DNA of 64,000 bases from Escherichia coli (GCF_024700885.2 NZ_CP117016.1), one strand, 5' to 3'; numbered from the stretch's first letter, positions 18,903-19,823 are shown. Translations and numbers: made by a program. The notes: generated from the sequence alone by a model not told the origin.

Positions 18903-19616
18903 TGATGGTGGTGGGGGAAGGATTACTCAGCGCTGCGCGCTTCACCCTTCGGGTCGTTGCCTGCGGCAACGCTTTCTCGCTGGCGCTCGAGTCGCACCTT
19001 GGTCGAAGCTTCTCATCCTTCCCCGCATGGGCAGAATATTTAATTGCGGATTCGTTTGAGAGTTCACGGACTTTTGAAAAGTGATGGTGGTGGGGGAAGG
19101 ATTACTCAGCGCTGCGCGCTTCGCCCTTCGGGTCGTTGCCTGCGGCAACGCTCTCTCGCTGGCGCTCGAGTCGAACCTTGGTCGAAGCTTCTCATCCTTC
19201 CCCGCATGGGCAGAATATTTAATCGCGGATTCGTTTGAGAGTTCACGGACTTTTGAAAGTGATGGTGGTGGGGGAAGGATTACTCAGCGCTGCGCGCTTC
19301 GCCCTTCGGGTCGTTGCCTGCGGCCACGCTCTCTCGTTGGCGCTCGAGTCGAACCTTGGTCGAAGCTTCTCATCCTTCCCCCGCTTGGGCAGAATATTTA
19401 ATTACGGATTCGTTTGAGAGTTCAGGGACTTTTGAAAGTGATGGTGGTGGGGGAAGGATTACTCAGCGCTGCGCGCTTCGCCCTTCGGGTCGTTGCCTGC
19501 GGCCACGCTCTCTCGCTGGCGCTCGAGTCGAACCTTGGTCGAAGCTTCTCATCCTTCCCCGCATGGGCAGAATATTTAATCGCGGATTCGTTTGAGAGTT
19601 CACGGACTTTTGAAAG
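18903..19616. repeat. rtT: Four tandem ~178-bp repeats of the tyrT-operon distal region (rtT/tpr-type), each starting with a copy of the tRNA-Tyr 3' end
   Basis: Units begin at 18903, 19081, 19259 and 19438 (period 178-179 bp, >95% identical); each starts with gtgatggtggtgggggaaggatt, which is the reverse complement of the tRNA-Tyr acceptor/T-arm 3' end. Confidence 0.85.
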
Positions 19617-19619
19617 TGA

Positions 19620-19704
19620 TGGTGGTGGGGGAAGGATTCGAACCTTCGAAGTCGATGACGGCAGATTTACAGTCTGCTCCCTTTGGCCGCTCGGGAACCC
19701 CACC
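19620..19704 (-). tRNA. tyrV: tRNA-Tyr (GUA), promoter-distal copy
   Basis: 85-nt reverse complement reads GGTGGGGTTCCCGAGCGGCCAAAGGGAGCAGACTGTAAATCTGCCGTCATCGACTTCGAAGGTTCGAATCCTTCCCCCACCACCA, the canonical E. coli tRNA-Tyr with long variable arm. Confidence 0.9.
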
Positions 19705-19738
19705 AGGGGTAATTCAAATTTTGAGGTAATGCTTGAGA

Positions 19739-19823
19739 TGGTGGTGGGGGAAGGATTCGAACCTTCGAAGTCGATGACGGCAGATTTACAGTCTGCTCCC
19801 TTTGGCCGCTCGGGAACCCCACC
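19739..19823 (-). tRNA. tyrT: tRNA-Tyr (GUA), promoter-proximal copy
   Basis: Second identical 85-nt tRNA-Tyr, 34 bp upstream of the first on the minus strand. Confidence 0.9.

Follow-up and report, generated by a model that had tools for sequence, protein, structure and literature searches.

Two tRNA-Tyr genes that lie only 34 bp apart and are followed by a series of tandem repeats raise the question of whether such a locus is a rearrangement peculiar to one strain of Escherichia coli or an ordinary form of the tyrT operon and, if the latter, how it is related to the form found in K-12. The arrangement occurs in a 64,000-nucleotide stretch of E. coli DNA (GCF_024700885.2, NZ_CP117016.1), which we refer to as the window. 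An initial annotation, made from the sequence of the window, had recognized the tyrT locus, tentatively assigned to K-12 a longer spacer between tyrT and tyrV and about three repeats, and suggested that the repeat count or placement was rearranged in this strain.

The repeats of the tyrT locus belong to a family known as TLRs. In one source (PMC8144298), the first description of TLRs, at the tyrT locus, is attributed to Egan and Landy (1978), Rudd (1999) is credited with a count of 22 TLRs at ten K-12 loci, with one to five per locus, and each TLR is stated to end in 18–19 nt identical to the 3′ end of the upstream stable RNA. TLRs have no known function, and the part that rtT had been proposed to play in amino-acid starvation was subsequently credited to a neighbouring ORF (PMC8144298). 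In the current version of the CoCoNuT preprint, rtT is not mentioned any more. The existence of the tyrT locus and of its repeats, and the readiness with which these recombine, have been familiar since the 1970s, and what we report on the locus is accurate but ordinary.

The tyrT operon in the window

What the window shows here is the tyrT operon of E. coli (tyrT–tyrV–rtT) in a natural allele unlike that of K-12. This identification rests on the tRNA genes, on four RtT matches far above threshold, on narI/purU synteny with K-12, and on the near-identity of promoter and leader. Two tRNA-Tyr(GUA) genes stand behind the tyrT promoter, between purU and the plus-strand gene narI, whose ORF ends at 18721 (Table 1), and ARAGORN places them 34 bp apart, as had been read directly from the sequence. 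In the promoter scan, the tyrT promoter displays 10 of 12 matches and a TG extension, and the 160 nt located 5′ of tyrT differ from those of K-12 in one base, at position −119. This promoter serves both tyrT and tyrV (PMC2887954). The flanks of the window are shared by 5,423 of 5,426 complete E. coli genomes, and on its far side the tyrT transcription unit is bounded by the intrinsic terminator of the convergent narGHJI operon.

Tandem Repeats Finder delineates an array at 18900–19638 with a period of 178/179, 4.1 copies, 96% matches and a score of 1383. Four minus-strand matches to the Rfam RtT family (RF00391), each spanning positions 1–130 of the model, score 123–137.5 bits against a gathering score of 45 bits. 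The four full 178-bp rtT repeats that had been proposed are thus real and correspond to units of 178/179 bp (R1–R4), which are lined up head-to-tail, all on the minus strand, and fill the interval between the base next to tyrV (19619) and 18906, a placement characteristic of TLRs. The 19-nt tRNA 3′ end, AATCCTTCCCCCACCACCA, closes all four units as well as both tRNA genes, in the manner of a TLR tail. Its copies end at 19739, 19620, 19442, 19263, 19085 and 18906 and are spaced by 119, 178, 179, 178 and 179 nt. Each copy lies at the 3′ end of its unit in the minus-strand sense, and the earlier observation that every repeat carries a copy of the last ~19 nt of tRNA-Tyr is correct.

In the unit alignment, the distal units differ mutually at 1–12 positions, and the 12 alignment columns in which R1–R4 differ comprise 10 substitutions and 2 indels. 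R1 and R3 are 1 nt apart, at a base that R1 has in common with R2, and R3 is the unit closest to the first distal unit of K-12 (K-12 R1; 5 differences). The array shares with the TLR family and RF00391 its placement 3′ of a tRNA in the same transcription unit, the 19-nt identity to the tRNA tail, and strong covariance-model matches. Nothing categorical sets it apart from this family, although it has four distal units here and six in some relatives, above the one to five of K-12.

A REP/BIME-like inverted palindromic pair (TGTCGGATGCGCTTCGCTTATCCGACCTACA ... TGTAGGTCCGGTAAACGCGGTGCC) was noticed by eye in the interval that separates the final repeat unit from the narI terminator. The window also contains tRNA-Met(CAT) and tRNA-Arg(TCT) genes, which have no relation to the tyrT locus. 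Rfam also matched rsmX, istR and STnc100 at the narI terminator and tmRNA fragments at the tRNA genes, but all of these matches were far below the gathering scores and were taken as chance.

Table 1 Features of the tyrT locus and other elements of the window
Feature	Coordinates	Strand	Evidence and remarks
tyrT promoter (TTTACA, 16-nt spacer, TATGAT, then GC-rich GCGCCCCGC)	19874..19901	minus	Promoter scan
tyrT, promoter-proximal tRNA-Tyr(GUA), 85 nt	19739..19823	minus	ARAGORN; Rfam tRNA, 53.4 bits; identical to K-12 tyrT
34-nt spacer / tyrV 5′ leader, TCTCAAGCATTACCTCAAAATTTGAATTACCCCT	19705..19738	minus	Identical to the promoter-distal 34 nt of the K-12 209-bp spacer
tyrV, promoter-distal tRNA-Tyr(GUA), 85 nt	19620..19704	minus	ARAGORN; identical to tyrT and to K-12 tyrV
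rtT/TLR unit R1, 178 nt	19442..19619	minus	RtT core 19442–19573, 131.6 bits
rtT/TLR unit R2, 179 nt	19263..19441	minus	RtT core 19263–19394, 123 bits
rtT/TLR unit R3, 178 nt	19085..19262	minus	RtT core 19085–19216, 137.5 bits
rtT/TLR unit R4, 179 nt	18906..19084	minus	RtT core 18906–19037, 131.2 bits
Tpr-like ORF in R1	19552..19463	minus	29 aa, C17G
Tpr-like ORF in R2	19373..19284	minus	29 aa, A13T and C17G
Tpr ORF in R3	19195..19106	minus	29 aa, identical to K-12 Tpr
Tpr-like ORF in R4	19016..18942	minus	Truncated, 24 aa
ychS-equivalent ORFs	18902..19401	plus	60 and 106 aa
REP/BIME-like inverted palindromic pair	18786..18860		By eye
Intrinsic terminator of the convergent narGHJI operon	18740..18761	plus	Terminator scan: 9-bp stem, then T-run
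tRNA-Met(CAT) and tRNA-Arg(TCT)	62758..63010	plus

Comparison with the K-12 locus

Alignment to K-12 MG1655 gives a tyrT–tyrV spacer of 209 bp and a distal array of 3.1 copies, in line with the expectation of a longer spacer and about three repeats; a figure of 3.14 distal repeats is reported to come from the literature of 1978–1981. The spacing and the count found in the window are both unlike those of K-12, and the two arrangements are allelic states of the same locus. The K-12 spacer is composed of a 175-bp divergent RtT unit, here called S (132.9 bits), which ends in a tRNA-tail copy, and of the same 34 nt that make up the entire spacer in the window. The window therefore does not have the K-12 architecture, in which a 209-bp spacer with an RtT-like unit is combined with 3.14 distal repeats. 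Compared with any of the R units, S has about 55 differences in 180 positions (~30%). The ends of tyrT and of S each carry one copy of a 20-nt direct repeat, AATCCTTCCCCCACCACCAT, and the endpoints of the S deletion fall within this repeat.

The proposal of a rearranged count or placement holds insofar as both differ from K-12, but the difference is not specific to this strain, as 54% of the surveyed genomes have the 34-bp spacer. The placement part of the proposal was borne out and can be stated more precisely: Rfam detects four RtT elements in either locus, three distal and one in the spacer in the case of K-12, and the window is thus K-12 minus S, which has been deleted, plus one distal unit.

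In other respects, the K-12 tyrT operon (tyrT–tyrV–rttR/tpr; b1231, b1230, b4425, b1229) occupies the same position between narI and purU and has identical tRNA genes, the same 34-nt tyrV leader, and a promoter and leader that differ in 1 of 160 nt. Its repeat units differ from those of the window at 5–12 of ~180 positions, and it contains one S unit in the 209-bp spacer and three distal units, whereas the window has the 34-bp spacer and four distal units. One intact Tpr ORF is found in K-12 compared to three in the window. The K-12 annotation gives rttR a length of 171 nt.

Frequency and architecture of the locus in E. coli

The frequency of the two spacer forms was examined in a survey set of 5,426 complete E. 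coli genomes. The direct tRNA–34 bp–tRNA junction was found in 2,910 genomes (54%) with a 131-nt probe, which had to be covered to at least 80%, K-12-type genomes reaching a coverage of 75% at most. The unique part of S was found in 1,922 genomes (35%), and about 11% of the set have neither the junction nor the K-12 spacer, most of these being single-gene loci. The short spacer is the majority state, and K-12, with a spacer unit that is present in only 35% of complete genomes, is atypical of E. coli at tyrT.

The whole 1,201-bp locus is 100% identical to that of the window in at least 17 genomes and 99.9% identical in at least two more, genome totals for the class that combines the 34-bp spacer with four R units being lower bounds. 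The matching genomes are annotated in RefSeq with four RtT sRNAs and two tRNA-Tyr genes, that is, the allele is already present there and correctly annotated.

Locus length was determined from the match span of a joined unique-flank probe in an evenly spaced sample, which yielded 47 resolved loci in 11 architecture classes. Loci with S in the spacer carry three R units (the K-12 type, 9 of 47 loci), two (7/47), one (3/47) or none (1/47); those with the 34-bp spacer carry one R unit (8/47), three (7/47), two (5/47), four (the type of the window, 1–2/47), five (1/47) or none (1/47); and a single tRNA gene with one R unit was found at 3 of the 47. By span, one locus (H120) was left unclassed with a residual of 178 bp, and another (H152) lies 2 bp from either of two classes. 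The tyrT locus is highly polymorphic in E. coli, and the exact class of the window is uncommon yet well replicated.

In E. coli 4/1-1 (NZ_CP023844.1; extracts L111, 1–5995, and L112, 28576–35685), the rtT array is replaced by a cluster of seven genes, ~7 kb in length, that encode a KAS III-like protein, an epimerase, an MBL hydrolase, an F390 synthetase-related protein, a PAP2 phosphatase, a sterol desaturase and a fatty-acid desaturase. The cluster adjoins tRNA-Tyr beside purU in some E. coli, and its desaturase end is found in 674 of the 5,426 genomes, in some of them beside a single tRNA-Tyr gene and in others beside a pair. Such a replacement agrees with the absence of rttR from IAI39 and E2348/69 (PMC3318445). 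Several genomes (H158–H160) have an IS4-family transposase within the narI–purU interval, which then spans ~3,704 bp.

Copy-number change and the ancestral state of the spacer

The initial annotation had described the array as a ready substrate for unequal recombination, and genomes with the same flanks substantiate this. Among 23 genomes in which 1,982 bp of flanking DNA are 100% identical to the window, the structure is the same in 18, and in the other five the difference amounts to whole units or a single tRNA gene. The variants have 2, 4 or 5 units and 1 or 2 tRNA genes, and their breakpoints fall exactly at unit boundaries. Four of the five were fetched and are composed of exact window units; the fifth (H188) has the same span as S1-SRL-01-C. 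The tRNA doublet is retained in S1-SRL-01-C, which has two units (R3, R4) and has lost 357 bp, and in NA3664, which has five (R1, R1, R2, R3, R4) and has gained 178 bp. A singlet is found in GPEC1337, where all four units (R1–R4) are present and the 119 bp lost correspond to one tRNA gene plus spacer, and in the isolate of CM182088, where two units (R1, R2) remain after the loss of 357 bp and 119 bp. At a flank identity of 99.0%, six-unit arrays and one three-tRNA locus appear. The tyrT copy number varies within a clone and is therefore not a marker of deep divergence. Short-read assemblies of the locus call for caution, and some of the variant assemblies could be collapse errors.

Unequal recombination between the doublet and singlet states of tyrT (su3) was reportedly described by Russell et al. 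in 1970. The loss seen in that system, of one of two identical 85-bp tRNA-Tyr genes, is the same as the 119-bp deletion found here. The su3 system was one of transducing phages and suppressor genetics, whereas the present variants are natural isolates, in which the changes extend to the repeat array and the spacer unit. Three tandem tRNA-Tyr genes, ~120 bp apart end to end, were observed in Citrobacter sp. MGH106 and E. coli EcPF15; such triplets are the expected reciprocal product of unequal exchange between two genes.

Judging from the unit alignment, the single base that R1 has in common with R2 is a trace of recent exchange within the array. As to three units versus four, the one-base difference between R1 and R3 fits either duplication or gene conversion. 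A simple R3/R2 unequal-crossover hybrid was considered as the origin of R1 and rejected, the order of the units being unfit for a single one-unit exchange.

A scan for RtT-type unit ends that included one genome per species returned 105 loci, all of them in Enterobacterales and with both spacer layouts represented. In 22 of 23 other species, the unit at the spacer position is closer to K-12 S (85–95%) than to K-12 R1 (69–76%). S-like spacer units with 85–95% identity occur in E. albertii, Citrobacter youngae, Klebsiella, Kluyvera, Leclercia and Raoultella, the unit of E. albertii being 95% identical to K-12 S. S or a remnant of it is found in the spacer of all four Escherichia-lineage outgroups: S is intact in E. 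albertii and present in Escherichia sp. ESNIH1, the 138-bp spacer of Escherichia sp. E1V33 holds S with an internal deletion and a degenerate tail copy, and the layout is tyrT–S–tyrV–S in the divergent ‘E. coli’ E69 (CP089930.1), whose flanks are 91–95% identical to the window. The distal unit of E69 is S-like (95% to K-12 S) and not R-like, as if a block of tRNA gene and S had been duplicated whole, and the E1V33 spacer is intermediate between the K-12 form and the short-spacer form.

S is ancestral, because it is ~30% away from all R units and yet 85–95% identical to the spacer units of other species. On the strength of these comparisons, we regard S as old and orthologous and the 34-bp spacer as derived from the longer form by deletion. 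Short-spacer doublets between narI and purU are also found in Enterobacter, Kosakonia, Trabulsiella and some species of Citrobacter (C. amalonaticus, C. braakii and C. sedlakii), S being retained in C. youngae and Klebsiella; this distribution suggests that the same deletion has recurred.

Instead of a new deletion each time, the distribution may reflect lateral exchange or a balanced polymorphism of long standing, given that short-spacer doublets are shared by Enterobacter, several Citrobacter species, Kosakonia and Trabulsiella. The reverse polarity, with the 34-bp spacer ancestral and the K-12 spacer unit derived from a repeat unit that was inserted later between the tRNA genes, would accord with the short spacer being the commoner one in E. 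coli (54% versus 35%) and present in several other genera, and two unequal exchanges could in principle convert a short-spacer layout into an S-type layout. A recent insertion would, however, resemble an R unit, and the ~30% divergence of S from all R units, its 85–95% identity to the spacer units of other genera, and the presence of S or its remnant in all four Escherichia-lineage outgroups make this polarity very improbable. Finally, an assembly artefact, that is, expansion or collapse of repeats, has only the slightest chance of having produced the four-unit array or the short spacer. Tandem repeats of 178 bp are prone to mis-assembly from short reads, and copy number varies among otherwise identical genomes, but the same locus span is found between the same flanks in at least 18 independent complete assemblies (of isolates from dog, chicken, human, lake and seawater), and it is because these agree in structure that we consider collapse or expansion unlikely. 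Moreover, at least 19 genomes are 99.9–100% identical to the window over the full 1,201-bp locus, and the 12 differing alignment columns fix the order of the units.

RNA structure and reading frames

Over 130 unique units from ~100 species, the Rfam structure of RtT is 95.8% canonical. Compensatory changes are found at 7 of its 24 pairs, among them the entire central hairpin, whose six pairs overlap Tpr codons, and in every unit GGGGAAGGAU pairs with the tRNA-tail copy to form the closing helix; the secondary structure of RtT is, by these measures, conserved. The curated structure was scored in place of a de novo one, RNAalifold on a MAFFT alignment having recovered the central hairpin and not the closing helix. 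Single units fold weakly better than shuffled sequences, with z-scores of −1.2 to −2.3, a margin to which no weight was given. In R1 and R2 (19263–19619), a U-to-G change breaks one pair of the central hairpin, which becomes non-canonical with respect to Rfam, and also converts Cys17 of Tpr to Gly.

An ORF identical to K-12 Tpr is present in the window. In K-12 itself, the 29-aa Tpr is encoded by the first distal unit only, the frame being interrupted after 5 and 9 codons in R2 and R3. Conservation of the Tpr reading frame was sought across 86 motif-bearing units of other Enterobacterales and was not found: 23 units are without the ATG, 43 of the 63 that have it reach a stop after 5 codons, and the open frames diverge through frameshifts. 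The minus-strand ORF at 18942–19148, which had been likened to Tpr as an Arg-rich, protamine-like peptide, is indeed Tpr-like in its last 24 residues, but as a whole it is a TTG-initiated read-through over a unit boundary into a truncated copy.

The description of the plus-strand ORFs as translations of the repeat was accurate, as they are antisense readings of it with 83 of 91 aligned residues identical to K-12 YchS. K-12 ychS (b1228; L001, 710–985) is itself the antisense of rtT repeats and is probably not a gene. Because the RNA structure covaries while the Tpr frame breaks across species, the rtT units are most likely RNA elements and tpr and ychS fortuitous ORFs; as annotated, the two resemble genes less than they do incidental products of a GC-rich repeat that forms a structured RNA.

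A model for the history of the allele

Combining these observations, we propose an explanation that we hold, as a whole, to be highly probable: the window carries a tyrT-operon allele that lies two recombination events away from K-12, is subject to putative processing and Rho-dependent termination, and has a nearly neutral copy number. A strong minus-strand promoter drives two identical tRNA-Tyr genes and then the TLR array, in which each rtT unit is a structured RNA of ~130 nt with the 19-nt tRNA-tail copy at its end. In a first event, S (175 bp) would have been precisely deleted by exchange or slippage between the two AATCCTTCCCCCACCACCAT repeats, leaving the 34-nt tyrV leader in place. In a second, unequal exchange between 178-bp units would have led to four distal units versus three.

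The primary transcript would be cut by tRNA-processing nucleases into two tRNA-Tyr molecules and one or more rtT RNAs, with the tail copy presumably acting as a tRNA-like signal for 3′-end processing. Rho-dependent termination at K-12 tyrT was reportedly described in the literature of 1978–1981. Each unit contains a C-rich, G-poor stretch that extends from the tail copy into the next unit and that, to judge by sequence composition and by that literature, may be a region of Rho loading and termination. The units past the first or second would then be transcribed rarely, and differences in copy number would therefore be close to neutral.

The repeats could instead be a small gene family for the Arg-rich, protamine-like Tpr, the extra units of the window giving three or four functional copies. 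There are three intact 29-aa ORFs, one of them equal to K-12 Tpr, and a 24-aa version, tpr is annotated in K-12, and PMC11623569, in which tpr is mentioned in a figure legend only, cites Altman et al. (1981) for a protamine-like product. This reading is nevertheless hard to credit in view of the stops after 5 and 9 codons in two of the three K-12 distal units, the same early stop in 43 of 63 ATG-bearing units and the lack of an ATG in 23 units of other Enterobacterales, and the compensatory base-pair changes, typical of an RNA stem, in the very bases that overlap Tpr; the richness in Arg would follow from GC-rich stems being read as CGN and AGR codons.

Selection on copy number is unlikely, although less easily dismissed. 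The tRNA-Tyr genes (1, 2 or 3 in number) and the terminator-bearing units (from 0 to 6) might have their copy number tuned for tRNA dosage or for shielding the convergent nar operon against a very strong promoter, in keeping with recurrent and frequent changes even within one clone, with the retention of S across genera at 85–95%, above the R units, and with the recurrence of a C-rich, G-poor segment in each unit opposite the convergent narGHJI. TLRs, however, are without a known phenotype, the one that had been claimed having been retracted (PMC8144298), and the persistence of arrays with 0 to 6 units, of loci with and without S, and of the island that replaces the array in 674 genomes argues for weak constraint. 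In a bolder form, to which we likewise assign a low probability, the tyrT tRNA/TLR array would be a fast-switching copy-number locus, in which the number of units (0–6), the number of tRNA genes (1–3) and the presence of S change on the timescale of clonal diversification, as in 5 of the 23 genomes with identical flanks, with switches that are perhaps selected and that might tune tRNA-Tyr dosage or strengthen the Rho-dependent insulation of the convergent nar operon. If this were true, the retention of S at 85–95% across genera and its loss from about two-thirds of E. coli would point to a conditional function of TLRs.

RtT-type units are also found away from tyrT. In the thrU–tyrU–glyT–thrT cluster, a unit of 166–176 nt with a tRNA-Tyr tail lies between tyrU and glyT in Cedecea, Acerihabitans, Dickeya, Budvicia, Intestinirhabdus, Sodalis and Yersinia (nine loci), and the same element family therefore follows tRNA-Tyr at a second locus.
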